Below, one piece after another: positions 2,600 through 56,472 of a stretch of 64,000 bases of DNA. How positions within the stretch are numbered: position 1 is the first letter of the stretch; the number at the start of each line of letters is the position of its first letter. This DNA is from Chloroflexia bacterium. GTDB taxonomy: Bacteria; Chloroflexota; Chloroflexia; DTKN01. The stretch spans positions 15,072 to 79,071 of the forward strand of contig DAOTVY010000045.1 of the NCBI GenBank assembly GCA_034436115.1, read 5' to 3'. The notes below the pieces were generated by a model. That model was not told the origin of the DNA and made no database searches. It saw nothing but the letters and a program-made list of their open reading frames with translations. A program made the translations under genes and the position numbers.

Positions 2600-2628
2600 T
2601 TGCCGCCCGGAAGGAATTGTGATAGAAT
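2600..2628 (+). promoter_or_regulatory. Sigma-70-like promoter TTGCCG-N17-TAGAAT upstream of the small ORF and CODH/ACS cluster
   Basis: Hexamers read directly with 17-nt spacing, about 50 nt upstream of the 2681 start. Confidence 0.35.
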
Positions 2629-2680: not shown

Positions 2681-3013
2681 ATGGAGAAGGTGTCCTTCCC
2701 CGTGCCGCGGATGTACGCAGACCATCATGTCCTGCGCGTCCGCGAGATCCTCTCCCAGATCCCAGGGATTGGCGAGATCTTTGCCAGTTCTGCCCTGAAA
2801 CGGGTCTTCCTCACCTACGACCCGGCCGCTACCTCGCTGGAAGCGATCCAGCAGGCGCTCAAGGCTGCCGGGTATGGACCGGACGATCCCCTCGAACTCC
2901 CGAACCTGACGCCGGCGAAAGATGACGGTTCCTTCTGGCACACGCTTCGCCCGCGGGTGACCCGCACGAACCGCCTGGACATCGAGATGTCGGGCGACTT
3001 CCGGAAGTACTGA
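2681..3013 (+). CDS. Hypothetical 110-aa protein leading the CODH/ACS gene cluster
   Basis: AGGAGG RBS 7 nt upstream of the ATG. The protein has no Cys. Family not recognised. Confidence 0.5.
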   Translation: MEKVSFPVPRMYADHHVLRVREILSQIPGIGEIFASSALKRVFLTYDPAATSLEAIQQALKAAGYGPDDPLELPNLTPAKDDGSFWHTLRPRVTRTNRLDIEMSGDFRKY

Positions 3014-3099
3014 TGCGTTGCCGGCCAGGAATCCTTTTCGGTGCACGGCCGCGCGAGTGGCCGGAACGGGCCGGCCGTTGAGCATGCTGAGGTGAGACG

Positions 3100-5088
3100 A
3101 TGGCAATCAAGAGTAGGGATCCTGCGGTAATGGCGATGCTGGAGCGTGCCGAGCAGGAAGGGCTCAGCACCGCTTTCAGCCGCGCGGAAGCGCTCAAGCC
3201 CTGCCCGATCGGGCACATCGGCCAGTGCTGCAAGGTGTGCCATATGGGCCCCTGCCGCCTGACCAAACCGGGACAGACCGGGATCTGTGGTGCCACCCTG
3301 GAGACGGTGACCGCGCGCAACCTGGCGCGCATCGTGGCCGGCGGGGCAGCTGCCCACTCCGACCACTGCCGGGATCTTGCCTTTACCTTGCTGGCCGTCG
3401 CCGAGGGCGAAGCCCCTGACTATTTTATCCGCGATACCGGCAAATTGCGCGAGGTGGCCACCTTCCTGGGCGTCCCGGTGGAAAAGCGGGAGACGCTGGA
3501 GATCGCCCACGACGTGGCTGTAAAGATGATCGGGGAATTCGGGAAACAGCGAGGCGAGCTGATTTACCTGCAGCGCGCGCCCCAGCCCCGCCAGGAGATC
3601 TGGCGCCGGCTCGACATCGCGCCCCGCGGGATCGACCGCGAGGTGGTGGACATCCTCCACCGCACCCACGTGGGGGACGATCAGGATTACGAGCACATCC
3701 TCCTGGCCACCCTGCGCTGTGCCCTTTCCGACGGCTGGGGCGGCTCCATGATGGCGACCGACCTGACCGATATCCTATTTGGGACCCCAACCCCGCTCGA
3801 AACTCAGGCAAACCTGGGCATCCTCAGCCCCGACAGCGTGAACATCGTCGTGCACGGGCACGAACCCACCCTCTCCGAGATGATCGCCTTCGTCTGCAAC
3901 GACCCGGAGATGATCGCCTACGCGCAGAGCAAGGGGGCCAAGGGGATCAACCTCGCCGGGATCTGCTGCACGGCCAACGAGGTGCTGATGCGCTTGGGTG
4001 TGGGGTCGGTCGGGAACTTCCTGAGCCAGGAACTGGCGATGATGACCGGCGCCGTAGAGCTGATGGTTGTGGACGTGCAGTGCATCATGGAGGCGCTTGC
4101 CCCGCTGTCCAAGCGCTACCACACCAAGCTGGTCACTACCTCCCCGAAGGTCAAGATCCACGGCGCGATCCATATCGAGTTCGACGAGCACCGTGCCCGA
4201 GAGATCGCCAAAGAGATCGTGCGCATGGCGATCGACAACTTTCCTAACCGGGGGCCGACCTACATCCCGGATTTCAAGAGCCGCCTGATTGCGGGCTTTT
4301 CCCACGAGTATGTGAACTATGCCCTGGGCGGCTATTACCGGGGCTCGTTCCGGCCGCTGAACGACGCCATCATGCAGGGGCGCCTCCGCGGCGTGGCCGG
4401 CGTGGTGGGCTGCAACAACCCGCGCACCTGCGAACAGGATGCCTACCACCAGTACCTGGTGCGCGAGTTCATCCGCAACGATGTCCTGGTGGTCCAGACG
4501 GGCTGCGGGGCCCTTTCCTCCGCCAAGTACGGCCTGCTCACCCCCGAAAAGGCGTTTGAGGAAGCCGGACCTGGGCTGCGTGAGATCTGCGAGGCGGTGG
4601 GAATCCCACCCGTCCTCCACCTCGGCTCGTGTGTGGACAACAGCCGCATCCTGACGATCCTCACCCAGATGGCGACCGAAGGAGGACTGGGCACCGACAT
4701 CAGCGACATCCCGGGCGTCGGGATCGCCCCAGAGTGGATGAGCGAGAAGGCCGTATCGATCGGTTGCTACTTCGTCGCCTCCGGCGTCTATACGATTTTT
4801 GGCGGCACCAGCCCGGTGGCGGGAAGCGAGGTGGTCAGCCGCCACATCAGCCAGGGCTGGGAAGAGCAGGTCGGCGGCAAGCTCGAGTTCATCGAGGATC
4901 CCGACGAGATCCTTGCCCGTTCTTTCGCCCATATCGACGCCAAGCGTCAGGCCCTGGGCCTGCCGGAGTATGACCCGAGCCGCTACGGCACAAGTGGCGA
5001 TGCCCTCATGATGCGCTATCTGAAGGCGCTCGAGATGGGCCTGCCCGTTAGCCCCTACAGCACCAAGGGGCTGGAGCAAGTCGGTTAG
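3100..5088 (+). CDS. cooS: Anaerobic Ni-dependent carbon-monoxide dehydrogenase catalytic subunit (CooS/AcsA)
   Basis: 662 aa. N-terminal CPIGHIGQCCKVCHMGPCRL cysteine cluster is characteristic of Ni-CODH. Sits immediately upstream of acsB. Confidence 0.9.
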   Translation: MAIKSRDPAVMAMLERAEQEGLSTAFSRAEALKPCPIGHIGQCCKVCHMGPCRLTKPGQTGICGATLETVTARNLARIVAGGAAAHSDHCRDLAFTLLAVAEGEAPDYFIRDTGKLREVATFLGVPVEKRETLEIAHDVAVKMIGEFGKQRGELIYLQRAPQPRQEIWRRLDIAPRGIDREVVDILHRTHVGDDQDYEHILLATLRCALSDGWGGSMMATDLTDILFGTPTPLETQANLGILSPDSVNIVVHGHEPTLSEMIAFVCNDPEMIAYAQSKGAKGINLAGICCTANEVLMRLGVGSVGNFLSQELAMMTGAVELMVVDVQCIMEALAPLSKRYHTKLVTTSPKVKIHGAIHIEFDEHRAREIAKEIVRMAIDNFPNRGPTYIPDFKSRLIAGFSHEYVNYALGGYYRGSFRPLNDAIMQGRLRGVAGVVGCNNPRTCEQDAYHQYLVREFIRNDVLVVQTGCGALSSAKYGLLTPEKAFEEAGPGLREICEAVGIPPVLHLGSCVDNSRILTILTQMATEGGLGTDISDIPGVGIAPEWMSEKAVSIGCYFVASGVYTIFGGTSPVAGSEVVSRHISQGWEEQVGGKLEFIEDPDEILARSFAHIDAKRQALGLPEYDPSRYGTSGDALMMRYLKALEMGLPVSPYSTKGLEQVG

Positions 5089-5103
5089 GAGAAGGAGGAC
5101 GCG

Positions 5104-7383
5104 ATGTCGCGGTATATCGCAACGGCTGCGATCCGGGGGGCCAACGCCATCGTCCAAGAGGCCGAGGACATGTTGGCCAAGGCGATTGCCGAACTGGGGC
5201 CGGAAACCCCGGTCGCTTTCACAAACACCGCCTACTACCTCCCCGTGATCTACGGGTTTACGGGCATCGAGGTCACCAAACTCGGCGATCTGGTCCCGGT
5301 GCTCCAGCACGCCCGCTCCCTGCTCCACCCCGTCCCGGCAGACGAAAACTGGCTCCCCTACCTGGGCGAGGCGCTGGACTGTGGGGTCGCGACCCTGCTG
5401 GCCGAAGAGGCGATCATGGGGATCCGCTTCGCCCGCGGGGAGCAGCCCGAGCGCATCCCGGGATTGGTACTCACGGGTACTTCCTTCACCAGCCCCGACG
5501 CCGAAACCGGGGAGGCTGGCGGCTACGCCAACGGGCCGATCGACGACATCCAGCTCCGTGCCTGGGGTATCCAGCTCGTGGACGGCCGTATGCCAGGGTT
5601 CGCCGCCATCGTCGGCGCCGCCAAATCCAACGAGGTGGCGGTAGAAATCGTGCGGCAACTCCAGCAGCGCAACATCCTGGTGTTCCTTTCCGGGAACGTC
5701 AACGGCCGCAGCATCATCCACCAGCTGATGGAAGAAGGGGTAGAGCTGGGCTACGACACCTATACCGTCCCCTTCGGCACGGATACGATCTCGGCGATCT
5801 ATGCCCTGGGCTTTGCCACCCGCTCGGCGCTCACGTTCGGCGGCAAGAAGGGTGGGCAGGCGCGCGAGATCCTGCTGTACAACAAGTACCGCGTCTTTGC
5901 CTTCGTCCTGGCCCTGGGAGAGGTGGATGACCTGAAGTACGCCACCGCCGCCGGCGCCATCTCCTACGGCTTTCCCACCATCGCTGACACGATTATCCCC
6001 CAGATCCTGCCCACGGGCGTCACCCAATACGAGCACGTGATCTCCATGCCCTTTGATGACATCCCCGGTGAAAACGACATCGAGCGCGCCAAGAAGCTCG
6101 TGCAAAAGTGCATCGAGGTGCGCGGCGTCAAGGTCAAGATCGCCGAGGTGCCTATCCCCGTCCCCTACGGCTCGGCCTTCGAGGGGGAGCGCGTACGGCG
6201 CGAGGACATGCGCATCGAGTTCGGTGGCAAGCATGCCCGCTGCTTCGAGTATCTGCGTATGGTCGACCTCAACGAGTGCGAAGACGGCAAGGTCACCGTC
6301 GTTGGGCCGGGGATCGAGAGCGTGCCCGAGGGCGGGGCGATGGATATGGGGATCGTCGTCGAAGTGGCCGGCCGCAAGATGCAGCTCGACTTCGAACCCG
6401 TGCTCGAGCGCCAGATCCACTACTTCATCAACGGCGCCTCCGGCATCCAGCATATCGGCCAGCGCGATATCGCCTGGATTCGCATCTCCAAGGCGGCCTT
6501 CGAGAAGGGCTTTCGCCTGGAGCATTTTGGCAAGATCCTCCACGCGCGCTTCCACGCCGACTTTGGCGCCATCGTGGACAAGGTCCAGGTCACGATCTAC
6601 ACCGACAAAGCCGAGATCGAGAAATGGCTCGCGCGGGCGCGCGAGGCCTACAACTACCGCAACCAGCGCCTGGCCGACCTGGTGGACGAGGCGGTGGAGG
6701 AATTCTACTCCTGCACGCTGTGCCAGTCGTTTGCCCCCAACCACGTGTGCATCGTCTCGCCAGAGCGCCTGGGGCTGTGCGGCGCCTACAACTGGCTCGA
6801 CTGCAAGGCCTCGTTCCAGATTAACCCCACGGGCCCCAACCAGCCGGTCCCCAAGGGGCGCTGCCTGGACCCGGTCAAGGGCTACTTCGACAAGGTGAAC
6901 GAGTTCGTCTACAAGACCTCCCACGGCACCGTGGAACAGGTCAGCATGTACTCGATCGTCGAGAACCCGATGACCGCCTGCGGCTGCTTCGAGTGCATCG
7001 CGATGGTGATCCCCGAGGCCAACGGCATCATGGTCGTCTCCCGCGAGGACCCCAGCATGACGCCAGCCGGCATGACCTTCTCCACCCTGGCCGGCATGGC
7101 GGGAGGCGGCCTGCAGACCCCCGGCGTCATGGGCGTGGGCAAGTACTACCTGCTCAGCAAAAAGTTCATCTCCGCGGATGGCGGCTTTAAGCGGGTCGTC
7201 TGGCTCTCATCCATCCTCAAGCAGACGATGGCCGAGGAGCTGAAGCAGGTGGCGATCCGCGAGGGGGACCCCGACCTGATCGACAAGATCGCCGACGAAC
7301 GGGTGGCGACCTCCGTGGACGAGCTCCTGGCCTACCTGGAGGAAAAGGGCCACCCGGCGCTGACGATGCCGCCGCTTTTCTAG
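5104..7383 (+). CDS. acsB: CO-methylating acetyl-CoA synthase (A-cluster subunit AcsB)
   Basis: 759 aa. ACGCFEC motif (Cys-Gly-Cys A-cluster bridging cysteines). GGAGG RBS. Confidence 0.9.
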   Translation: MSRYIATAAIRGANAIVQEAEDMLAKAIAELGPETPVAFTNTAYYLPVIYGFTGIEVTKLGDLVPVLQHARSLLHPVPADENWLPYLGEALDCGVATLLAEEAIMGIRFARGEQPERIPGLVLTGTSFTSPDAETGEAGGYANGPIDDIQLRAWGIQLVDGRMPGFAAIVGAAKSNEVAVEIVRQLQQRNILVFLSGNVNGRSIIHQLMEEGVELGYDTYTVPFGTDTISAIYALGFATRSALTFGGKKGGQAREILLYNKYRVFAFVLALGEVDDLKYATAAGAISYGFPTIADTIIPQILPTGVTQYEHVISMPFDDIPGENDIERAKKLVQKCIEVRGVKVKIAEVPIPVPYGSAFEGERVRREDMRIEFGGKHARCFEYLRMVDLNECEDGKVTVVGPGIESVPEGGAMDMGIVVEVAGRKMQLDFEPVLERQIHYFINGASGIQHIGQRDIAWIRISKAAFEKGFRLEHFGKILHARFHADFGAIVDKVQVTIYTDKAEIEKWLARAREAYNYRNQRLADLVDEAVEEFYSCTLCQSFAPNHVCIVSPERLGLCGAYNWLDCKASFQINPTGPNQPVPKGRCLDPVKGYFDKVNEFVYKTSHGTVEQVSMYSIVENPMTACGCFECIAMVIPEANGIMVVSREDPSMTPAGMTFSTLAGMAGGGLQTPGVMGVGKYYLLSKKFISADGGFKRVVWLSSILKQTMAEELKQVAIREGDPDLIDKIADERVATSVDELLAYLEEKGHPALTMPPLF

Positions 7384-7406
7384 CGGTGCTCGTGCAAGGC
7401 TCCGAT

Positions 7407-7439
7407 CGATGCCGCAGCCAGCCCTCGGCTGCGGCATCG
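7407..7439 (+). terminator. Perfect 13-bp GC-rich inverted repeat (CGATGCCGCAGCC / GGCTGCGGCATCG, 7-nt loop) just after the acsB stop
   Basis: Read directly. No U-tract follows, so it may be an intrinsic terminator or attenuator variant, or an RNA processing site. Confidence 0.3.
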
Positions 7440-7458
7440 CGCTGAACGGGAAAAGCAG

Positions 7459-7487
7459 TTGCGCGGCCCCAACCCCTGTAGTACAAT
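7459..7487 (+). promoter_or_regulatory. Candidate internal promoter TTGCGC-N17-TACAAT ahead of the CBS-acsD-acsC genes
   Basis: Hexamers with 17-nt spacing, 70 nt upstream of the GTG start at 7558. Confidence 0.3.
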
Positions 7488-7557
7488 ATGGGCCGGCCAG
7501 CTGGAGGCGCCCTGGCATAGAGGTGGTTTACGATCAGGACGGATCAGGAGGTAGGCC

Positions 7558-7983
7558 GTGCCGGACTATTTGCAAAAAACCGCGGTACGCGAGGTGATGC
7601 ATCGGGGCGTCATTACCTGCACCCCCGAAACTGCCTTGAAAGAGGTAGCTCGGATCATGAACGCTACCGACGTTCACGCCCTCATCGTGGTCAACGAGCG
7701 TAACGAGGTCCAGGGGATCGTCTCCCACATGGATATGCTCCGGGCTTTTGGCCAGGACCTCTACGCGCTCAAAGCCCAGGATGTGATGACGAAAGAGGTG
7801 CTGAGCATCGAACCCGATGCACCGCTCGCGGAAGCGGTCCGGATGATGCTCGACCACCGCGTACACCGCCTGCTCGTCGCCCGCATCGAGGGCGGGGCGA
7901 AGATCCCGGTCGGCGTGATCTCCACCACCGATGTGATCGACGCCATGTGGGGCCGGCCGTGGCTATGGGAGCGGCCAGCGTAA
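7558..7983 (+). CDS. Stand-alone CBS-pair domain protein
   Basis: 141 aa with two CBS motifs (VMHRGVITCTPETALKEVARIM...; VMTKEVLSIEPDAPLAEAV...HRLLV). GTG start with GGAGG RBS. Confidence 0.7.
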   Translation: MPDYLQKTAVREVMHRGVITCTPETALKEVARIMNATDVHALIVVNERNEVQGIVSHMDMLRAFGQDLYALKAQDVMTKEVLSIEPDAPLAEAVRMMLDHRVHRLLVARIEGGAKIPVGVISTTDVIDAMWGRPWLWERPA

Positions 7984-8026
7984 GGTCGCACGGGATCGAG
8001 GAAGAACCCCGAAAAAGGAGGACCCT

Positions 8027-8998
8027 ATGCCTGTCGAGATCCCCAAGGAGAACTGGACGAGCCAGGTGCTTGAGGTCACGCTTGGAGCAACGCCGGAACA
8101 GGGAGGGACCCGCGGCCGCACCGTCACCGTCGGGGGCGAAAGCACCCTGCCCTTCCTGCACTATGAGGGGGAAATGCCCCACCGTCCGGTCGTTGCGGTC
8201 GAGGTGCTCGACCGCTACCCCGACGACTGGTCCCCGCTTCTCCTCGAGGCGTGGGGCGAAGCCGCCCACGATCCGGTCGCCTGGGCGGCCCAGGGAGTGG
8301 CCAACGGTGCGGACCTCGTCTGCCTGCGCCTGGAAGGAGCCCATCCGGACCGCGACGGCCGCTCGCCGGCCGAGGCGGCACAAACCGTCAAAAGCGTCCT
8401 CAAGGGTGTTGAGGTTCCCCTGATCGTGTTGGGGCCTGGCCAGCCGGAAGCCGATAACGAGGTGCTCGTCGCGGTGGCCGAGGCGACCAGCGGGGAACGC
8501 CTCGCTTTGGGCCTCTGCGAGGACAAGAACTACCGTACCATCGTGGCGGCGGCGCTCGCCCATCAGCATCTGGTCATCGCCAGTTCTCCGATCGATGTGA
8601 ACCTGGCCAAGCAGCTGAACATCCTGATCAGCGATATGGGGCTGCCTCTGGAGCGCATCCTCATCGACCCGACGACCGGGGCCCTGGGCTATGGGCTAGA
8701 GTACACCTACTCGGTGATGGAGCGGCTCCGCATCGCCGCGCTGAGCGGAGACCGATTGACCCAGCTCCCCTTCTTCTGTACCGCGGGGCTGGAATCGTGG
8801 CGGCAGAAAGAGTCCAAGGTTGGAGAGGGTGTCCCGGCCTCCTGGGGCGATTTTCGGGAACGCGCCATCGCCTGGGAGGTGATGACGGCGACCGCGCTCC
8901 TCATGGCCGGCGCGGACATCCTCGTGCTCCGCCATCCGGAGAGCATTCGGCGAGTGGTGCGGATCATCGATCGCCTGATGGGGACCAAGGAGGCGTAA
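8027..8998 (+). CDS. acsD: Corrinoid iron-sulfur protein small subunit (AcsD/CdhD)
   Basis: 323 aa, similar to CFeSP delta subunits. AGGAGG RBS. Lies between acsB and acsC. Confidence 0.8.
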   Translation: MPVEIPKENWTSQVLEVTLGATPEQGGTRGRTVTVGGESTLPFLHYEGEMPHRPVVAVEVLDRYPDDWSPLLLEAWGEAAHDPVAWAAQGVANGADLVCLRLEGAHPDRDGRSPAEAAQTVKSVLKGVEVPLIVLGPGQPEADNEVLVAVAEATSGERLALGLCEDKNYRTIVAAALAHQHLVIASSPIDVNLAKQLNILISDMGLPLERILIDPTTGALGYGLEYTYSVMERLRIAALSGDRLTQLPFFCTAGLESWRQKESKVGEGVPASWGDFRERAIAWEVMTATALLMAGADILVLRHPESIRRVVRIIDRLMGTKEA

Positions 8999-9001
8999 AC
9001 C

Positions 9002-10351
9002 ATGGCGCTCAGCGGACTGGAAATGTACAAGCTGCTTCCCAAAACAAACTGCAAGGAATGCGGTTTCCCCACCTGCCTCGCTTTCGCCATGAAGCTGGCC
9101 GCCAAACAGGCCGAACTGAGCGCCTGCCCATACGTCTCCGAAGAGGCGCGTCAGGCGCTGGCCGCGGCTGCCGCACCCCCGATCCGCCTCGTCTCCATCG
9201 GGACCGACCCGCACAAGGTTGAGGTCGGCAACGAAACCGTGCTCTTCCGCCACGAGAAGACCTTTTACCACGAACCGGGCATCTTTTTGCGGGTTCGGGA
9301 CACCCAGGAGCCGGCAACGATAGAAACCGCCGTGCGGGAGGCGCTGAGCTACAGCGTGGAACGGGTCGGCCTGGCCCTCGGCCTGAACGGCGTGGCCATT
9401 GAGAATGCCTCCGGTGACCCCGAAGCCTTCGCCCGGACGGTCCAGCAGGTACGGGCGCTCACCCAGAAGCCGTTCATCCTGATGGCGGAGGATCCGGCTG
9501 CGCTCAAAGCCGCGCTGGCCGTCGAGGGGGGCAAGCGGCCGCTGCTCTACGCCGCAACGAGCGCGAACTGGCAGGGGATGGCCGCGCTGGCCAAGGAGGC
9601 CGGCCTTCCCCTCGCGGTGCGCGACGGCGACCTCTCGACTCTCGCCGACCTGACCGAGAAGATCAAGGCCGCGGGCGTGGAAGACCTGGTGCTCGATCCG
9701 GGCACGCGAGGCATCCTGGAGAGCCTGCACGCCCTGACCGCTCTCCGCCGGCTGGCGCTGAAGAAGAACTTCCGTCCCCTCGGCTACCCGATCATTACCT
9801 TCCCGGGGGAGGGGGCCGAGGATCCGCTGGACGAGGCGGTCATCGCCGCCGAGCACGTGGCCAAGTACGCCGGCCTGATCGTGCTCGACCACTTCTCCCC
9901 TGCCCTCGTTTACCCGCTGCTCACGCTGCGCCTGAACATCTACACCGACCCGCAGAAGCCGATCCAGGTCTCCCCGGGCCTCTATGAGATCGGCTCGCCT
10001 GGGCCGCAGTCGCCGCTCATGATCACGACCAACTTCTCCCTGACCTACTTTACCGTGGCCGGCGAGGTGGAGGGAAGCGGCGTTCCCAGCTGGTTGCTCA
10101 TCGCCGACTCGGAGGGCATGAGCGTGCTCACCGCCTGGGCAGCGGGCAAGTTCGACGCCGAAAAGATCGCCAAGACGGTCAAGCAGTTCGATGCCGCAAG
10201 CAAAATCTCCCACCGCAAGTTGATCCTGCCCGGTTATGTTTCCTCCCTTCTGGGCGAGGTGGAAGACGAGCTTCAGGGCTGGGAGATCCTGGTCGGGCCG
10301 CGCGAGGCAGTCGACATCCCGAACTACCTGAAGAACGTGTGGCGACCGTGA
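9002..10351 (+). CDS. acsC: Corrinoid iron-sulfur protein large subunit (AcsC/CdhE) with N-terminal 4Fe-4S motif
   Basis: 449 aa. N-terminal CKECGFPTCLAFAMKL...CPY cysteine cluster. Family resemblance to CFeSP gamma subunits. Confidence 0.85.
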   Translation: MALSGLEMYKLLPKTNCKECGFPTCLAFAMKLAAKQAELSACPYVSEEARQALAAAAAPPIRLVSIGTDPHKVEVGNETVLFRHEKTFYHEPGIFLRVRDTQEPATIETAVREALSYSVERVGLALGLNGVAIENASGDPEAFARTVQQVRALTQKPFILMAEDPAALKAALAVEGGKRPLLYAATSANWQGMAALAKEAGLPLAVRDGDLSTLADLTEKIKAAGVEDLVLDPGTRGILESLHALTALRRLALKKNFRPLGYPIITFPGEGAEDPLDEAVIAAEHVAKYAGLIVLDHFSPALVYPLLTLRLNIYTDPQKPIQVSPGLYEIGSPGPQSPLMITTNFSLTYFTVAGEVEGSGVPSWLLIADSEGMSVLTAWAAGKFDAEKIAKTVKQFDAASKISHRKLILPGYVSSLLGEVEDELQGWEILVGPREAVDIPNYLKNVWRP

Positions 10352-10415
10352 CGTTTTCCGGGCGCGATGCGGGCGGCCCTTGGCCGCCCGCATCGGCTAC
10401 CGGGGGAGGAAGACG

Positions 10416-10619
10416 ATGGAGACACGGAGGCTGTACCGGTCGCGGAACGACCGCATGATCGCCGGTGTGTGCGGTGGACTGGCGCGCTACCTGGGCACGG
10501 ATCCCACCCTGGTGCGCGTCGTCTTTGCCCTGGCCAGCCTCTTCTTCCTGGGCATCGGCGGTGTGCTGGCCTACCTGGTGCTGTGGGCGATCGTGCCCGA
10601 AGAGCCGGCCGGCTTTTGA
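10416..10619 (+). CDS. pspC: PspC-domain membrane protein
   Basis: METRRLYRSRNDRMIAGVCGGLARYLGTDPTLVRVVFAL... matches the PspC N-terminal consensus (RS..D.mi.GVCGGlA.Y). Confidence 0.6.
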   Translation: METRRLYRSRNDRMIAGVCGGLARYLGTDPTLVRVVFALASLFFLGIGGVLAYLVLWAIVPEEPAGF

Positions 10620-10635
10620 GCGGCCGGAGGGCCCC

Positions 10636-11646
10636 GTGCCCTGCTCTATCCCTTTGGACGACCCCGCAGAGCAGCAGCAGGCCGCCCCCGCGCTCGATGT
10701 GATCGTCGTGTCCTGGAACGTGCGCGACTGGCTGGCTCTCTGTCTCCGTTCCCTGCGTCAGGCGCTCGAGAACCTCCCGGTGCGCGCACGCCTGCTGGTG
10801 GTGGACAATGCTTCCACGGACGGGAGCGTCGAGCTAGTTCAGCGCGAGTTCCCAGAGGTCGGGCTCCTAGCCCTGCCCGAGAACCAGGGTTTTGCGACCG
10901 CTGTGAACCAGGGGTTGCGCGCACTGGGTATCGGGCGCGAGCCGGGTTCGGACGCCGGCCAGAAGTGGCTTCTGCTGCTGAACGCCGATACGGAGATCGT
11001 CGGCTCTGCCGTTGCCGATCTGCTGGCCTGCGGTGTTGCTCACCCCGAGGCGGGCGTGGTCGGCCCCCGCTTGATCTCACCTGACGGCACCGTCCAATCC
11101 TCGAGACGTCGTTTCCCGACCCCGGCCACCCTCTTTTGGGAAAGCACCGTCCTCGAGCAGTATTTTCCCCGCAACCGCTGGGCGCGCCGCTACCGTATGG
11201 AAGACCAGCCGGACGACATCTTGCAGGAGGTGGACTGGTTGGTCGGCGCCTGCCTGCTTGTCCGGGCAAGGGCGATCGCGGACGCCGGATGGCTCGATGA
11301 GGGGTATTTCCTCTACTTCGAGGAGCTCGAGTGGTGTCAACGGGTCCGTCGCGCGGGGTGGCGGGTGCTCTACCTTCCCACCGCTCGCGTGATCCACCAC
11401 GGGGGAAAGAGCAGCGAACAGGTCCCCCTGCAACAACACCTCCAGTTCCAGCGGAGCAAGGTGCGGTACACGCGCCACACGTTTGGCCCCGGCCTGGCCG
11501 AGTGCCTGCGCCTTTTCCTGCTCGCTATGTATGCGTGGAAATGGGCCACAGAAGCGGGCAAACTGGCGCTAGGGCACCGGCCCACGCTGCGGCGTGAGCG
11601 CATGGGCATCTACGCTGCGTTGCTGAAGGATGGGTTAAGGGCATAG
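10636..11646 (+). CDS. Family 2 glycosyltransferase
   Basis: VIVVSWNVRDWL...VVDNASTDGS...LLLNADTE motifs. The first in-frame start after pspC is the GTG at 10636, so the start is uncertain. Confidence 0.6.
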   Translation: MPCSIPLDDPAEQQQAAPALDVIVVSWNVRDWLALCLRSLRQALENLPVRARLLVVDNASTDGSVELVQREFPEVGLLALPENQGFATAVNQGLRALGIGREPGSDAGQKWLLLLNADTEIVGSAVADLLACGVAHPEAGVVGPRLISPDGTVQSSRRRFPTPATLFWESTVLEQYFPRNRWARRYRMEDQPDDILQEVDWLVGACLLVRARAIADAGWLDEGYFLYFEELEWCQRVRRAGWRVLYLPTARVIHHGGKSSEQVPLQQHLQFQRSKVRYTRHTFGPGLAECLRLFLLAMYAWKWATEAGKLALGHRPTLRRERMGIYAALLKDGLRA

Positions 11647-11656
11647 GGGCCGTGGC

Positions 11657-12439
11657 TCAGTCTGCGGAGACGGTGCGCTGCATCCGGATCAGGTGCCAAT
11701 AGGCGAGGCCGGTATAGTAGGCCATCGCCGCGCAGAGATACAGCCCCAACCAACCGTCCCGATAACCCTTCAGGCCCACATAGCGCCGCCAGAACTCGCG
11801 CACCGGTTGCCCCAGGAGGCTGCGCGGGCGGGCGCGGACGCCCTTGCCCAGGAGCGTCTCGGCCTCTAGACGCGCGTAGCGGCGTTGCTTGGCCCAGAAC
11901 TCCGCCAACCGGTCGACATTGTAGTGGAGCAGATGCGCCGAGAGACACCCGGCCCGGCCTCGGAGGTGCACCACCTCGTGCACGCGCTGCACCTCCGGGT
12001 AATGGGCCCTTGCCTTCCAGAGCAGGCGCAACTGGTAGTCGGGATACCATCCGGCGTGGCGCACCGGCCGGCCGAAGAAAAAGTTTTGCCGCGGAATCCA
12101 GTAGCCCACCACGGCATCCGGGTCTTCCTGAGAAGGTTCCTCCTGTACAGCACGGGCGATTTCGCCGCATAGCTCCGGCGTGGCACGCTCGTCCGCATCC
12201 AGGAAAAAGACCCATGGGTACTGGCAGAGCGAAAGCGCCTGGTTGCGCAGATGCGCGAAGGACACGAACGGGACCTCGATCAGCCGGGCCCCCAGGCTAC
12301 GGGCGATTTCCGCCGTACGATCCTGGCTCTGCGGATCGAGGATGACCAGGAGCTCGTCGGCCACTCCCTGGACGCTTTCCAGACACCCGCCCAGGTAGCG
12401 TTCTTCGTCGCGGGCCGGGACGGCCACCGATAGCGGCAT
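11657..12439 (-). CDS. Family 2 glycosyltransferase
   Basis: MPLSVAVPARDEERYL...FFLDADE. GGAGG RBS upstream of the ATG at 12439. The ORF-track ORF extends further upstream. Confidence 0.6.
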   Translation of the reverse strand: MPLSVAVPARDEERYLGGCLESVQGVADELLVILDPQSQDRTAEIARSLGARLIEVPFVSFAHLRNQALSLCQYPWVFFLDADERATPELCGEIARAVQEEPSQEDPDAVVGYWIPRQNFFFGRPVRHAGWYPDYQLRLLWKARAHYPEVQRVHEVVHLRGRAGCLSAHLLHYNVDRLAEFWAKQRRYARLEAETLLGKGVRARPRSLLGQPVREFWRRYVGLKGYRDGWLGLYLCAAMAYYTGLAYWHLIRMQRTVSAD

Positions 12440-15451: not shown

Positions 15452-15525
15452 GGCCCCATCGTCTAGTGGCCTAGGACGCAGCCCTCTCAAGGCTGAGATC
15501 GGGGGTTCGAATCCCCCTGGGGCTA
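15452..15525 (+). tRNA. tRNA-Glu (anticodon CUC)
   Basis: Cloverleaf folded by hand. Acceptor GGCCCCA/UGGGGCU with discriminator A. D-arm GTCT...; anticodon stem CAGCC/GGCTG with loop CUCUCAA (U33, anticodon CUC, A37). T-arm GGGGG-TTCGAAT-CCCCC. No encoded CCA. Followed by a short GC stem and a T-rich run. Confidence 0.85.
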
Positions 15526-23426: not shown

Positions 23427-23456
23427 CTCCGGCCGCGCGCCCGTGCGCGGCCGGAG
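23427..23456 (+). terminator. Intrinsic terminator-like hairpin (12-bp perfect stem CTCCGGCCGCGC / GCGCGGCCGGAG, 6-nt loop) followed by a T-rich tract
   Basis: Read directly, 15 nt after the stop of the nucleotidyltransferase gene. Confidence 0.45.
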
Positions 23457-32502: not shown

Positions 32503-32563
32503 TGGGACCTCCTTTCGGGGATCCCCTTCCCTCCCGCTTGCGGGGAGGGAAGGGGGAAAAGCC

Positions 32564-37488: not shown

Positions 37489-37494
37489 GTAAAT

Positions 37495-37520
37495 ATGATA
37501 TATCGTATACAGTATATCAT
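37495..37520 (+). promoter_or_regulatory. AT-rich palindromic operator candidate ATGATATA-tcGTATACag-TATATCAT at about +1 of the gntR promoter
   Basis: 8-bp perfect inverted-repeat arms flank a GTATAC core, matching the GntR/FadR-type GT-N-AC operator logic. A 26-bp AT-rich island in a 67% GC genome. Confidence 0.5.
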
Positions 37521-37547
37521 ATCTGAGCCCTCCGGAGGCGTCTCTCC

Positions 37548-38216
37548 ATGGCCGATGGGTTGCCCCGTCTCGAACAACCGCCCTCGCTGAAGGACCGTGC
37601 CTACGACACCATCAAGCAAGCCATCCTGACCTTGCAACTGAAACCGGGCCAGCCCCTGGTGGAACACGAGCTCGCCCGTCAGCTCGGAATCAGCAAGACC
37701 CCAGTGCGCGATGCCCTACAGGAACTGGAGCGCGAAGGGTTCGTCACCCGCGTCCTGTTCAAAGGGACCTATGTCACCGAAGTGACGATGAAGGACTTGC
37801 GGGAGATCTTTCAGCTGCGTGCCGTCCTGGAAGGGCTCGCCGCCCGGCTCGCTGCTCCCCGCTTTACCCCACAGGAGCTGGACGAACTGGAACATCACCT
37901 CGCCCTCTCCGAAGAGGCTCTGGCCGCGGGCGACCGCGCTCGCTGCTCCCGCTTGGGCCAGACCCTCCACAACGCGATCATCGAAAAGGCGGACAACACC
38001 CGCCTGACCTTGATCATCCGCAACCTGGATGACCACGTCCAGCGCTTCCGCGCCCTCTCGGACCAGATCAGCGGCCGACTGAACAAATCGGTGCGCGAGC
38101 ACCGCCGCATCCTGCAGGCGCTACGGCGTTGCGACCCGGATGCGGCTGAGCAGGCGGTCCGGGATCACCTGTTCAGCGTGTTGGACGACCTGAGCGCTTC
38201 TTCGGAGGAGGAGTAG
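37548..38216 (+). CDS. GntR-family transcriptional regulator, FadR subfamily (winged HTH plus FCD domain)
   Basis: LKPGQPLVEHELARQLGISKTPVRDALQELEREGFV is the GntR HTH; the C-terminal FCD domain is all-helical. Confidence 0.8.
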   Translation: MADGLPRLEQPPSLKDRAYDTIKQAILTLQLKPGQPLVEHELARQLGISKTPVRDALQELEREGFVTRVLFKGTYVTEVTMKDLREIFQLRAVLEGLAARLAAPRFTPQELDELEHHLALSEEALAAGDRARCSRLGQTLHNAIIEKADNTRLTLIIRNLDDHVQRFRALSDQISGRLNKSVREHRRILQALRRCDPDAAEQAVRDHLFSVLDDLSASSEEE

Positions 38217-41365: not shown

Positions 41366-42757
41366 ATGGGTGAAGCCGTACAGCTGACTGCTGCCCACTG
41401 GGTCTATGCGGCTTTCGTGATCCTGATCTTTGTCACGCTGGCCTTGCGGCGTGACACGGCGCTCGTCTGCGTCATCGGGGCCTTCATCCTCGGATGGATC
41501 ATCATGGGCAGTCCCATCGGAGGGCTCCAGGCCATCTTTAACGGCATGGTGCAGGCCGGCTCGGTGCTCCTCCCGGTGGTCTTTATCATCTCCATCGTCG
41601 TCGCCCTGGCCAAGGGATTGGAGCCGATGGGGACCCTCTACCTGATGGTGCGCCCCGCGGCCAAGCTGATGCGCACCCCGGCTCTGGCATTCTGGATCAC
41701 CGGGATCGTCATGTACGTCGCGGCCCTGTTCATCTGGCCTTCCCCCGCAACTGCCCTCGTGGGCGCGCTGCTCTTCCCTGCAGGCCTCGCGGTCGGCCTG
41801 CCTGCGATCTCGAGCGCGATGGCAATGAACCTCTTCGGCCACGGCGCTTGCCTCTCCACCGACCTGGTCATCCAAGGAGCCCCCCGTCTGACGGCGGAGG
41901 CATCCGGCCTTTCGGTGGCCGAGGTGATCCAGGCCAGCATCCCACTGAATATCGTTGCCAGCGTCGTCGCGCTGGCCCTGGCCTGGTTCCTGACCGTACG
42001 CAAGGATATCAAGGCCCATACCGTGACCGAGACCGAGTACCTGAAGTTCGAAAAGGAGCGCTCCAAGGCCGAGCAGCGCGTCTACTCCACGCCGGCCCGC
42101 GTAGCCGCCTGGGTGGTCCCTCTGGTCTTCTTGGTTGAGGTGATCATCCTGATCGTGCTCAAGATCCGCGGCGGAGATGCCACGGCCGTGCTGGGCGGTA
42201 CCTGCCTGGTGCTCCTCTCGATCTTTTCCCTGTGGGAGTACAAGCAGGAGGGGCTCGGGAAGATCACCGATAGCCTGCGCGAGGGCTTCATGTTCGGGAT
42301 GAAGGTCTTCTCCCCTGTGTTCATCGTTGCCGGCTTCTACCTGATGGGGGTCCCCGAGCACTGCACCGCGATCTTTGGCGATAAGGGCCGGCCGCTGATC
42401 ATCGAACTGATCAAGGCGCTCTCGAACGTGATCCCGATGAGCAAGGTGGTCGTCGCCCCGATGCACACCATCCTCTCGGGCATCACCGGACTGGACGGCT
42501 CCGGCTTTAACGATCTGCCGCTCATGGGAGCCCTGGCCGCCTCCTGGGGCCAGGCCCTGAAGATCAAGACTGCCTACCTGGCAGCCTTGGGCCAGATCTC
42601 GATGATCTGGGTGGGCGGCGGCGTGATCATCCCGTGGGCAGTCCTGCCGGTCTCGGCCATCACCGGAGTTCCGGCTATTGAACTCTGCCGCAAGAACTTC
42701 TGGCCATGCATCGCCGGCCTGGCCGCAGCGACCATCCTGGCCATCCTGCTGATGTAG
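41366..42757 (+). CDS. Polytopic membrane transporter (putative ion/organic anion permease; family uncertain)
   Basis: 463 aa, 10 or more predicted TM helices. GGAGAA RBS. Confidence 0.5.
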   Translation: MGEAVQLTAAHWVYAAFVILIFVTLALRRDTALVCVIGAFILGWIIMGSPIGGLQAIFNGMVQAGSVLLPVVFIISIVVALAKGLEPMGTLYLMVRPAAKLMRTPALAFWITGIVMYVAALFIWPSPATALVGALLFPAGLAVGLPAISSAMAMNLFGHGACLSTDLVIQGAPRLTAEASGLSVAEVIQASIPLNIVASVVALALAWFLTVRKDIKAHTVTETEYLKFEKERSKAEQRVYSTPARVAAWVVPLVFLVEVIILIVLKIRGGDATAVLGGTCLVLLSIFSLWEYKQEGLGKITDSLREGFMFGMKVFSPVFIVAGFYLMGVPEHCTAIFGDKGRPLIIELIKALSNVIPMSKVVVAPMHTILSGITGLDGSGFNDLPLMGALAASWGQALKIKTAYLAALGQISMIWVGGGVIIPWAVLPVSAITGVPAIELCRKNFWPCIAGLAAATILAILLM

Positions 42758-42825
42758 CGAGAAGAGGGTGGCCTGGCCCCTGGTTCAGGGGCCAGGCCAC
42801 CCTCAGATGGAGACGGGAGGGCACC

Positions 42826-50236: not shown

Positions 50237-53200
50237 ATGCGCGTGCCGAAAGCCGTTTCCATCCTTTCCCTCCTCGTATTCCTGGCAACGCTGATCCCGG
50301 GCGTGACTTCTGCCCGCACCCCCCCACCGCCCGAGACACCCATCCCAACTTCCCCCGGTCCCCCTCCAGAAGTTGACCCGCAGATCCTCACGGAGATGGA
50401 CCTTTCTGCGAACGGCACCACCGGATTCTTCGTCCGATTCCGGGGTCGCGCAGACCTCTCTGCTGCCGCCCAGATCCCCGATTGGAAGCTCCGGGGCCGT
50501 TCCGTCTATGAAGCGCTGCGCGCGGTCGCCGAGCGCTCCCAGAAGCGCGTGCGTGCCTTCCTGGACGCCCGGGGCATCCCCTACCGCGTGTTTCTCACGA
50601 CGAACTCGATCTTCGTGACCGGGGACAAGGAACTGCTCCGCGAACTGGCGGCTTTCCCCGAGGTCGAAGCTTTCCGCGCCAACTATACCCACCCGCTGGA
50701 ACCGATCGAGCGCGGGGCTGAAGTCAACGCGCCCGTCGGCCCCTCCTGGAACATCGTGCTGGTCGGCGCGGACCGCGTTTGGAGGGACTTTGGCGTCCGT
50801 GGCGACGGCATCACCGTGGCCAACATCGATACCGGCGTCGAGTATACCCACCCGGCGCTCTTCCCGAACTACAAATGCGGCAGCGGCCCCCACGACGATT
50901 GCTGGTACGATCCCTCCGCGATCTGTCCTCCGGGGCAGCCGTGCGACAACGTCGGGCACGGGACACATACGATGGGCACGATGGTGGGCGACGACGACCC
51001 GACCCTTTCCTATAACGTCGGAATGGCCCCCAACGCGCAGTGGATTGCATGCAAGGGATGCGAAGACTGGTCCTGTTCCGACTTCGCCCTGAACGCCTGC
51101 GCCGATTGGATCCTTGCCCCCAACGGCAACCCCGATCATCGCCCTAACGTCGTGAACAACTCCTGGGGTGGAGGTGGATGTCAGGACTGGTACCGCACCG
51201 CGGTCGAGGCCTGGCGGGCTGCGGGCATCTTTCCCGCTTTTTCCGCCGGAAACAGTGGTCCAGGGTGCGGAAGCCTTGGTTCCCCTGGGGATTACCCGGA
51301 ATCTTTTGCCTCGGGAGCAAGCGACGCGGATGACCAAATCGCCGGCTTTTCCAGCCGTGGCCCCTCCTGCTGGGGCGAGATCAAGCCTGAGGTGGCCGCG
51401 CCCGGCGTGGACGTCTGCTCGACCGTCCCTGGAGGAGGCTTCGAGTGCACCGGCTGGTCGGGCACCTCCATGGCTAGCCCGCACTCGGCTGGCCTGGTGG
51501 CGCTTCTGTGGAGCGCGAACCTCTCCTTGATCGGGAACATCGAAACCACCGAGCGCCTGATCACCTCCACCGCCGTCTGCCGAACGGACCTTTCCTGCGG
51601 CGGCGAGGAGTGCCACAACAATGTCTACGGCTGGGGACGCATCGACGCTTATGCCGCAGTCCAACTGGTCGTCTCTCAGGGATATCTCGAGGGATACGTC
51701 CGCGATGAAAGCGGAACCCCCTTGGGCGGTGCCACCATCCTCGCCCGGCGCCGGACCACCACGATCACCGGCTATACCGATCCCACGGGCTACTATACGA
51801 TGTCCCTGCCGGCCGGCACGTATACCGTTACCGCCGCGCTCTACGGCTACGCCCCACAGACCGTGACCGGAGTCGAGATCATCACCGATACAACGACGAC
51901 CCAGAACTTTACGCTGACCGCCGTTCCCTTCTACCAGGTATCGGGTACAGTCATAGACGCCGGGGGCGGCTGGCCGCTCTACGCCCAGATCGCCATCCAG
52001 GGCGACCCCATCTCTCCCCCGCCCCCCTACGATGCGATATGGACCAACCCTCTGGATGGCTCCTACAGCATTACCTTGGCCGCAGGCATCACCTACACGT
52101 TCCACGTGCGGCCCTGGTCCAAGGGCTACCTGGAGGAAAGGCGACCAGTCGGCCCGTTGACCGGCAACGAAGTCCAGAACTTTGCCCTCCAGGTCGATGC
52201 CGAAGCCTGCATTGCACCGGGCTATCGCCCCAATTTTGCCTACTACGAGGATTTCGAGGCGAGTGACGGGGACTTTAAAACGCTCGGCTCGACCTCCTGG
52301 GCCTGGGGGACACCGACGAGCGGTCCCGGAAGCGCCCACTCTGGCCTGAACGCCTGGGGAACGAACCTGAGCGGGAATTACAACAACGCCGAGGACGGCT
52401 ACCTGGTTTCCCCACCTATCGACCTGAGCGCCTATGCCGGCCAGGGGTTGTATCTATCCTGGTGGCAATGGTTGCAGACCGAGTGGTGCTGCGACTTTGC
52501 TTCCGTCGAGGTGAGCAACGACGGGGGACAGACCTGGCGGCTCATCTATGGCCAGGCCGCCGGCAACGTTGATTTGGTCTGGACGAGACACTGGGCCTTC
52601 CTCGACCCCTCGTATGCGGTCGCAGACTTTCGACTGCGCTTCCGCCTCTATACGGACTGGTCCGTCACCTACCCGGGGTTCTACATCGACGATGTCGGCA
52701 TCCTTCCACTGCCCCTCACGACCGTCTACAGCGAGGACTTTGAAGCAAGCAACGGCGGCTACACCACCCGTGGGAATACTTCGTGGGAATGGGGCACCCC
52801 GACCAGCGGCCCAGGCAGCGCTCACTCCGGCAGCAACGTCTGGGCGACCAACCTGGAGGGCAATTACGGGCCAAACGAGAACGGCTATTTGGAGTCGCCC
52901 GAAATCGACCTGAGCGCCTACGCCGGCCAGGACCTCTACCTCCTATGGTGGCAATGGCTCCAGACGGAGTACCTCTTCGACTACGGGAGTGTCGAGGTGA
53001 GCGCGGACGGCGGCGCGACCTGGCAGCGCGTGTACGGCGAAACAAGTGGCAACGTCGACCTGGCCTGGAGGCAGCGCGGCGCCGTGCTCGACCCCTGGTT
53101 CGCCACGGAACATTTCCGGCTGCGCTTCCGGCTGCGCTCCGATCGCTCGGTCCACTTCCCGGGCTACTACGTAGATGACGTAGCCATCGCCGTTTCCCCA

Positions 53201-56314: not shown

Positions 56315-56472
56315 CGGGTGAGCAACAGACGGGAAAGCGCGCGGGGGTGGGCAACGCTCACCCCCGCGCACCCTTCCCGGGGTTGACCCTCCCGCCCGGG
56401 TGTAGTAGAATGTTCGGGCGAGAACAGCGCGTGCTTACGGGAGGGACCCCGCTTTCAGGGTCGGGCAACCAG

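Follow-up and report, generated by a model that had tools for sequence, protein, structure and literature searches.

A compact Wood-Ljungdahl carbonyl-branch operon core in a Chloroflexota bacterium, headed by a conserved Asp-His-His gene of the heavy-metal-associated fold

Six genes at positions 2681 to 10351 of a 64-kb stretch of contig DAOTVY010000045.1 (the whole stretch is called the window here) carry the signatures of the carbonyl branch of the Wood-Ljungdahl pathway (WLP). The cluster holds genes for carbon monoxide dehydrogenase (CODH), acetyl-CoA synthase (ACS), and the corrinoid iron-sulfur protein (CFeSP), with no acsE, cooC, or acsF beside them, and the question that it raises is whether this compactness reflects a reduced pathway or a familiar operon whose partners lie elsewhere. 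The pathway has CODH/ACS at its center, an enzyme that is also targeted for CO2/CO biocatalysis. CooS interconverts CO2 and CO, and AcsB joins CO, CoA, and a methyl group from the cobalt of AcsCD to give acetyl-CoA, or catalyzes the reverse reaction. The host appears to be an uncultivated, high-GC, Anaerolineae-like Chloroflexota bacterium, and the region is its carbonyl-branch operon core. We read the locus, with a probability of roughly three in four, as a conserved core laid out in two modules, with accessory genes typical of its clade and with the missing genes relocated in the genome. What is new here is a conserved, unstudied gene that heads the acs operon and encodes a protein of the heavy-metal-associated (HMA) fold with an Asp-His-His loop.

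The operon core and its counterparts in related genomes

Pfam was run on every called gene of the window, and NCBIfam, with its curated cut-offs, on the genes of the cluster, all of which lie on the forward strand. The first gene (2681..3013) encodes the small HMA-fold protein of 110 amino acids (aa), with a marginal match to PF00403 (26 bits, cut-off 24.8) and a ribosome-binding site (RBS), AAGGAGG, before the ATG at 2681. It is followed by the gene for CooS/AcsA, the catalytic subunit of Ni-CODH (3100..5088, 662 aa; TIGR01702, 614 bits, cut-off 478), with the RBS GAGGTG before the ATG at 3100, and by the gene for AcsB, the bacterial alpha/beta-type ACS subunit (5104..7383, 759 aa; NF040764, 985 bits, cut-off 800). 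A stand-alone CBS pair of 141 aa (7558..7983), with the RBS AGGAGG before its GTG start at 7558, was recognized by PF00571 in two stretches (E = 1.3e-28). The last two genes encode AcsD, the small CFeSP subunit (8027..8998, 323 aa; NF003376, 409 bits, cut-off 280), and AcsC, the large subunit (9002..10351, 449 aa; NF003195, 592 bits, cut-off 306; PF04060 and PF03599), the N-terminus of which carries the 4Fe-4S motif of PF04060. The six identities and their order, as given in an earlier note on this DNA, were borne out by the coordinates and the curated family cut-offs; that note had allowed for a misassignment of acsB, acsC, or acsD by profile models, and the NCBIfam scores of all three were found to lie above the curated cut-offs.

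Comparison with solved structures pointed to conserved catalytic centers. In CooS, the motifs HGH, CCT, QC, GCNN, TGC, and GSC, which we take to be the ligands of the C-cluster, were aligned with and identical to those of the solved CODH 6t7j. In AcsB, all three domains were matched by Pfam (PF18537, PF03598, and PF19436), and scores of 689-697 bits were obtained with the solved ACS chains 1oao/1mjg and 7zkj, the alignment with 7zkj_B (697 bits) running from end to end. The A-cluster motifs, CxxC...C...C ('CTLCQSFAPNHVCIVSPERLGLCGA') and CGC ('TACGCFE'), were kept and aligned to the same motifs in 7zkj_B. The GC content of the cluster (0.64-0.66) is that of the window (~0.65 throughout), so that the composition bears no mark of foreign origin. 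The protein sequences of the window recur at 99-100% identity, with intact open reading frames (ORFs), on metagenome contigs from four or more samples. On this sequence evidence, the region holds a genuine CODH/ACS-CFeSP core that looks functional and belongs to a type common among Chloroflexota.

A scan of a genome collection with AcsB retrieved 80 related loci with 75-93% AcsB identity, nearly all of them from Chloroflexota metagenome-assembled genomes (MAGs) labeled Anaerolineae, Chloroflexia, Caldilineae, Ardenticatenia, or Thermoflexia, and a few from Actinomycetota (loci are designated by L numbers, and proteins by P numbers). The dominant order among these 80 loci was FchA-FolD-FTHFS, followed by the core HMA-like-CooS-AcsB-(0-3 CBS)-AcsD-AcsC, followed by (membrane hydrolase-PAP2)-RACo-(CooC)-AcsE, with MetF, HdrA/MvhD, or FolD often nearby. 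The neighbors were identified by NCBIfam as AcsE (NF005719, above cut-off), AcsV, FTHFS, FolD, and FchA, and the best solved relative of the ATPase in these loci was CooC1 (3kje). Judged by gene order, the six-gene core is the norm of the clade and not unusual. The description of its composition as non-canonical in the earlier note was therefore overstated, since a small ORF, the HMA-like gene, lies directly 5′ of cooS in 63 of the 67 loci seeded on AcsB, at a median gap of 88 nt. What proved specific to the lineage, when gene order was compared among related genomes, is that the RACo-CooC-AcsE and folate genes are not adjacent to the core.

The bare core, without both flanking modules, was found only in the window and in the loci L006 (88% AcsB identity) and L009 (83%), where it sits between DUF362-SIS and PspC-GT2 genes; L005 was too short to judge. 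In the window, the DUF362 and SIS_2 genes (832-2574) lie just 5′ of the operon; both are found upstream in L006, and the SIS gene is found upstream in L009. The downstream flank, described in the earlier note as pspC and glycosyltransferase genes, indeed consists of a PspC-like ORF (ATG at 10417) and three GT2 glycosyltransferases. By comparison, the extended WLP clusters of other Chloroflexota and Actinomycetota MAGs (e.g., L012, L020, L069, and L072) have an identical core, including a hairpin after acsB, and differ from the window in carrying FchA-FolD-FTHFS before it and RACo-(CooC)-AcsE after it. In many relatives (e.g., L020 14907-15986 and L027 16570-17148), the space between AcsC and RACo is occupied by a membrane protein without a family match, the C-terminal half of which resembles a hydrolase, and by a homologue of PAP2-type undecaprenyl-diphosphatase. 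In about 12 loci (e.g., L062 2473-3588), a DUF166 (DfsP-like) protein, with an apparent receiver-like region at its N-terminus, precedes FTHFS or the HMA-like gene.

The acs operons of Moorella thermoacetica and Carboxydothermus hydrogenoformans encode the same four structural proteins in the order CODH, ACS, CFeSP. The window differs from them in that AcsD precedes AcsC, in the extra HMA-like and CBS genes, in a CooS extended by ~40 aa, and in having no AcsE, CooC/AcsF, or RACo within ~81.5 kb. The top solved relatives of CooS were 6t7j and then the CODH/ACS of C. autoethanogenum (6ytt/9fzy); together with the Desulfovibrio enzyme 6b6v, these nearest solved CODHs scored 616-635 bits, compared to ~500 bits for the Moorella beta subunit. 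Because these CODHs score highest, CooS was placed in the C. autoethanogenum branch and not with the Moorella type. We know of no HMA-like gene upstream in the operons of the C. autoethanogenum branch.

The first gene and its HMA-fold product

The first gene, called uncharacterized in the earlier note, was found to encode an HMA-fold protein with a remodeled metal-binding loop. An AlphaFold2 model, based on an alignment of 36 sequences, predicted a beta-alpha-beta-beta-alpha domain in residues 1-66 with a predicted local distance difference test score (pLDDT) of ~90, and Foldseek superimposed this domain best on MerP and CopZ, with a root-mean-square deviation of 1.0 Å and a probability of 1.00. 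The 110 residues include no cysteine, and the GMxCxxC metal-binding motif of HMA chaperones is not present; profile alignments to classical HMA domains revealed M-Y-A-D-H-H in the place of M-x-C-x-x-C. Residues D14, H15, and H16 are invariant in 49 diverse members of the family, and the same replacement of CxxC was seen in ~168 of the 213 family members collected. Compared with CopZ, MerP, and Atx1 (PF00403), the protein thus keeps the fold, and has Cys1 replaced by Ala/Gly, Cys2 replaced by His, and an invariant Asp-His in between; it also has an extra tail of ~45 aa ending in MSGDFRKY, and its gene lies among those for CODH/ACS and not among genes for handling copper or mercury. The C-terminus reads MSGDFR[KR][YW] in most members, and a second group ends in RPLWPCPG.... 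Database entries name the family 'copper chaperone CopZ' or 'heavy-metal-associated domain-containing protein'; the former label is unsafe because CxxC is missing, and is probably wrong.

An exhaustive profile search for the family yielded 384 representatives at E <= 1e-10, and a word-indexed search with the same profile yielded 3172 clusters at E <= 1e-8, the weakest of which may include classical HMA proteins. Look-ups seeded on the HMA-like protein itself found CooS directly downstream in four of four cases, followed by AcsB in the three that had enough sequence. The HMA-like gene and a CooC-type ATPase share a cluster in at least 23 loci. Some members of the family are fused to a helix-turn-helix (HTH) domain of the MerR/excisionase type, which is N-terminal (P0365 in L175 895-1425, and also P0334, P0083, P0156, and P0196), and others (P0075, P0095, and P0096) are fused to a Cys-rich domain. 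In L175, the fusion gene lies directly 5′ of CooS and just after a gene resembling that of a hydrogenase maturation protease, as read by eye from the translation.

CooS itself carries a C-terminal extension of ~40 aa (residues ~622-662; window 4966-5088), which is not seen in solved CODHs and is conserved across relatives as YDPxRFGxSGD...LYS. This extension has its SGD core in common with the tail of the HMA-like protein, MSGDFRKY. The CooS proteins of two relatives, L063 and L082, have His-rich C-termini. These His-rich tails and the extension provide circumstantial support for metal handling in this region.

Assembly of the nickel clusters of CODH/ACS is partly understood, and involves CooC, CooT, CooJ, and AcsF. 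Among nickel chaperones, UreE relies on histidines and contains an Atx1-like domain. The proposed role of the HMA-like protein, by analogy, would be that of CooC, CooT, CooJ, and UreE, as a small protein encoded near cooS that handles nickel; it has no sequence match to them in Pfam or NCBIfam, and its fold is unlike that of CooT and CooC. The ORF matched only HMA, MerP, and CopZ models in these two libraries, and weakly, the presence of CooT and CooJ models in the libraries being unchecked. Nickel accessory roles for CODH have been described for CooC, CooT, and CooJ of Rhodospirillum rubrum (PMC13056359). A 2026 survey of CODH gene neighborhoods gives only CooC, CooT, and CooJ as maturases and mentions neither HMA-like nor CBS genes, which are likewise not mentioned in a survey of Chloroflexi. 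A literature search found no paper linking an HMA, CopZ, or heavy metal-associated protein with CODH/ACS, and none connecting CBS with acs genes.

We hypothesize, from sequence and predicted fold, that the HMA-like protein is a His/Asp-based chaperone for a metal, possibly nickel, or an assembly factor for CODH/ACS. In its most specific form, the proposal is that the Asp-His-His protein is an unrecognized, widespread maturation factor that would carry nickel or another divalent metal, dock through MSGDFRKY, and work with CooC; we hold this form tentatively, at clearly less than even odds. If true, it would be a chaperone analogous to CooT and CooJ, which the clade does not show. The protein could instead be no chaperone, and serve as a metal or small-molecule sensor that regulates the operon, or as a stoichiometric small subunit of CODH/ACS. 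The HTH fusions of the same domain that lie directly 5′ of cooS and end in SGDFRRY (P0365 in L175, P0334, and P0083) speak for such a role, as do the constant first position of the gene with its predicted co-transcription with cooS, and the conserved, apparently disordered C-terminal tail, which would suit docking to a partner. Most members, however, lack a DNA-binding domain, the invariant residues coincide with the metal-binding position of HMA domains, and the His-rich CooS tails of L063 and L082 link the region to metal handling. The sensor and small-subunit roles are rather unlikely, and draw what probability they have from the HTH fusions and from the resemblance of the conserved tail to a docking peptide. 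A third proposal, that the HMA-like protein replaces CooC/AcsF and permits nickel insertion without an ATPase, would explain the absence of cooC from the cluster, and could draw on the metal-chaperone fold with its His/Asp loop and on the lack of a nearby cooC in the window. It was rejected as very improbable because at least 23 loci have both genes in one cluster, among them L069, L072, and L075, which have the order CooC-HMA-CooS-AcsB...RACo-CooC-AcsE; the two proteins would be partners or act independently, and would not be alternatives. The chaperone hypothesis accordingly assigns the HMA-like protein a place alongside CooC, and not instead of it.

Two putative expression modules and the CBS gene

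A promoter-like site with a match to consensus (P1, TTGCCG-17-TAGAAT, 2600..2628, forward strand) was identified 53 nt before the first gene. It has a TG 5′ of the -10 hexamer, making it an extended -10 site, and was picked up by a generic promoter scan; of 64 relatives, 15 have a similar site, also with a 17-nt spacer, before their homologue of this gene. A perfect GC-rich hairpin with a 13-bp stem and a 7-nt loop (T1, 7407..7439, forward strand) begins 24 nt after the acsB stop codon; the earlier note had reported a strong hairpin at these coordinates. It is followed by a second promoter-like site (P2, TTGCGC-17-TACAAT, 7459..7487, forward strand), 70 nt before the CBS gene. A second perfect GC-rich hairpin, with a 14-bp stem and a 3-nt loop (T2, 10365..10395, forward strand), lies 14 nt after the acsC stop codon and shares the stem base CGATGC...GCATCG with T1. 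Neither hairpin is followed by a U-tract.

The case for T1, T2, and P2 rests on the count of perfect hairpins and on the comparison with relatives. Seven perfect hairpins with stems of at least 10 bp, T1 among them, were found in the 64 kb, whereas five simulated sequences gave 0, 3, 0, 0, and 0. All seven are intergenic, and six of the seven are located 7-25 nt past a stop codon. Four of the others (23427-23456, 32523-32555, 42764-42804, and 56339-56369) are GC-rich, with stems of 11-19 bp and no U-tract, and lie 7-25 nt 3′ of stop codons; the genome appears to use tail-less stems at the ends of genes. T1-type hairpins look like the usual 3′-end structures of this genome. Among the relatives, a hairpin of -25 kcal/mol or lower follows acsB in 52% and acsC in 35%, compared to 3-11% with a strong hairpin at the HMA/CooS, CooS/AcsB, and AcsD/AcsC junctions. 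The sequences of the post-acsB hairpins differ among loci, and it is the position that is conserved. The window, L006, L009, and 13 other relatives have a TTGnnn-17-TAnnnT site between the hairpin and the next gene, and the spacer measures 17 nt in every case. The candidate internal promoter of the earlier note was made plausible by these equivalent sites, even though the generic scan had missed P2.

The arrangement of these elements suggests two expression modules. The first would be transcribed from P1 through the genes for the HMA-like protein, CooS, and AcsB, and would end at T1; the second would start at P2, comprise the CBS, acsD, and acsC genes, and end at T2. T1 may let the two halves be expressed at different levels, acting either as a partial terminator or as a 3′-end stabilizer. 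In L056 (AcsB 2937-5219) and L057 (AcsB 10001-12283), HMA-CooS-AcsB was found, and neither AcsD nor AcsC follows within 10 kb; other lineages, too, seem to have a break in the operon at the hairpin after acsB.

The CBS gene encodes a plain pair of two motifs, the closest solved relatives of which are the archaeal MJ1225 (the best, at 76 bits), ST2348, and PH0107. Like MJ1225, MJ0100, and ST2348, it has two CBS motifs in ~140 aa; it differs from them in lying inside an acs operon, with a copy number that varies among relatives. Copies between acsB and acsD number 0, 1, 2, and 3 in 40, 24, 3, and 1 of 68 loci, respectively, and the gene is therefore, as far as gene content tells, a recurrent but dispensable accessory typical of the clade and not a peculiarity of this genome. 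The CBS-pair gene that the earlier note had described as inserted between acsB and acsD thus has counterparts in 28 of the 68 loci. By analogy with other CBS pairs, the pair probably senses an adenosyl-type ligand, and would act as a ligand-sensing modulator. Searches against Rfam, at gathering and at permissive thresholds, revealed no riboswitch or known RNA in the cluster; the sole Rfam match of the window is a tRNA gene (15452-15525).

Genes not found near the cluster, and the wider neighborhood

Exact-protein look-ups (JGI, ENA, and Logan metagenome contigs) extended the sequence by 9.2 kb upstream and 8.3 kb downstream of the window. Pfam searches over all called genes of the window found no AcsE, CooC/AcsF, RACo/AcsV, FTHFS, FolD, FchA, or MetF, and tblastn with the seven proteins of relatives found none in the window and flanks, ~81.5 kb combined. 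Within this sequence, AcsE had no PF00809, NF005719, or tblastn match, and neither CooC/AcsF nor RACo/AcsV, both of which most relatives have nearby, was found. The absence of acsE, cooC, and acsF from the vicinity, reported in the earlier note, was therefore borne out; the presence of acsE or cooC immediately beyond the analyzed region, which would have contradicted it, was looked for in the ~17.5 kb of extra flank and not found. In a protein search for AcsE with 7714 matches, none of the 120 listed was traced to the nearest MAGs. A metagenome scan with the AcsE of a relative, which retained 80 loci sharing 8-residue patterns with this one query, returned one contig from the sample of the window (L119). 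This contig is 99.9% identical to L020 and belongs to a different species, one with a full cluster of its own, and was rejected as evidence either way on the organism's own AcsE.

These results could be taken to mean that the pathway is truly reduced, with AcsE, RACo, CooC, and the folate genes lost, and with another methyltransferase in use or acetyl-CoA cleavage as the only remaining function. The incomplete pathway of Dehalococcoides resembles such a reduction. None of these genes lies in the ~81.5 kb around the cluster, the two nearest relatives (L006 and L009) share the bare arrangement, and the metagenome scan gave no AcsE contig attributable to the organism. The design of that scan, with short patterns, a single query, and 80 loci, nevertheless makes the miss weigh little, and the genes in question are found in relatives with enough flank. 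Loss is also unlikely because the CFeSP genes are intact and conserved (AcsC and AcsD are 75-81% identical to the L006 and L009 versions, and 99-100% identical across samples), which would be odd if the protein were neither methylated nor reactivated, and a true reduction was accordingly considered improbable. The shortness of the cluster and its position amid unrelated cell-envelope genes might suggest that it has no function and is either a remnant in decay or a piece acquired by recent transfer, but this is scarcely credible. All six ORFs are intact, ribosome-binding sites are present, the catalytic motifs are conserved relative to solved CODH and ACS, and the GC content is that of the rest of the window. 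The arrangement and its flanks recur in L006 and L009, with protein identities of 56-88%, which argues for long vertical maintenance. Most likely, to judge from gene order in the clade, AcsE, RACo/AcsV, CooC, and the folate-branch genes lie elsewhere in the genome. Relocation is the simplest reading because the modules scatter in other relatives too, as in L056 and L057, where no CFeSP gene lies within 10 kb of HMA-CooS-AcsB, and in the stand-alone CooC-AcsE contigs, e.g., L097 and L107. The compactness is a lineage-specific rearrangement, and one contig is too little to judge what it means for metabolism.

Several observations weigh against the reading of a relocated, two-module core with a metal chaperone at its head. 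Relocation is something that we infer, since no AcsE contig found in the metagenome scan is attributable to the organism. The tails of the hairpins, CGCTGAACGGGA and GCTACCGGGGGA, contain no U-tract, so that T1 and T2 have the GC-rich stem-loop after a stop codon expected of an intrinsic terminator and not its U-tract; a generic terminator scan, for want of a T-tract, listed neither of them. Shuffled versions of the whole acsB-CBS spacer fold about as well as the spacer itself (z = -0.40). The -35 hexamer of P2 matches three of six consensus positions, and the site lies below the threshold of the generic scan. As to the candidate chaperone, its C-terminal tail was modeled by AlphaFold2 at low confidence, and the family members fused to an HTH domain could point to a regulatory role.

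Beyond the cluster, a 648-aa ORF without a family match on the reverse strand (688-2634) was discarded as an antisense shadow of the DUF362 and SIS genes. An AT-rich perfect palindrome (37493-37522, ATATGATATATCGTATACAGTATATCATAT) lies 26 nt 5′ of a GntR/FCD regulator gene (37548-38216), and separates it from a divergent cluster encoding enoyl-CoA hydratase, 2-oxoacid:ferredoxin oxidoreductase, acyl-CoA dehydrogenase, and ETF; from its sequence and position, it looks like a candidate operator. A 463-aa ORF (41366-42757) has a strong coding signal and no Pfam match at E <= 1e-5, and is followed by the longest hairpin of the window, with a 19-bp stem. The gene at 50237-56314 encodes a 2025-aa secreted-type protein with S8 subtilase, CarboxypepD_reg, InhA-like MAM, and Kelch beta-propeller domains. 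A glycyl-radical enzyme of 788 aa resembling pyruvate formate-lyase is encoded ~6.5-8.9 kb before the window start (L170 299-2665), and might supply or consume formate and acetyl-CoA in this organism.

As a warning, a single contig provides no basis for inferring an incomplete pathway. The two-module layout and the variable CBS genes are of lesser weight, and the main lasting value of the locus is its Asp-His-His HMA-fold gene. Located 5′ of cooS in nearly all of the Chloroflexota and Actinomycetota acs operons examined, this gene is a candidate for a missing component of CODH/ACS maturation or regulation, and its product may matter for the heterologous expression of CODH/ACS.

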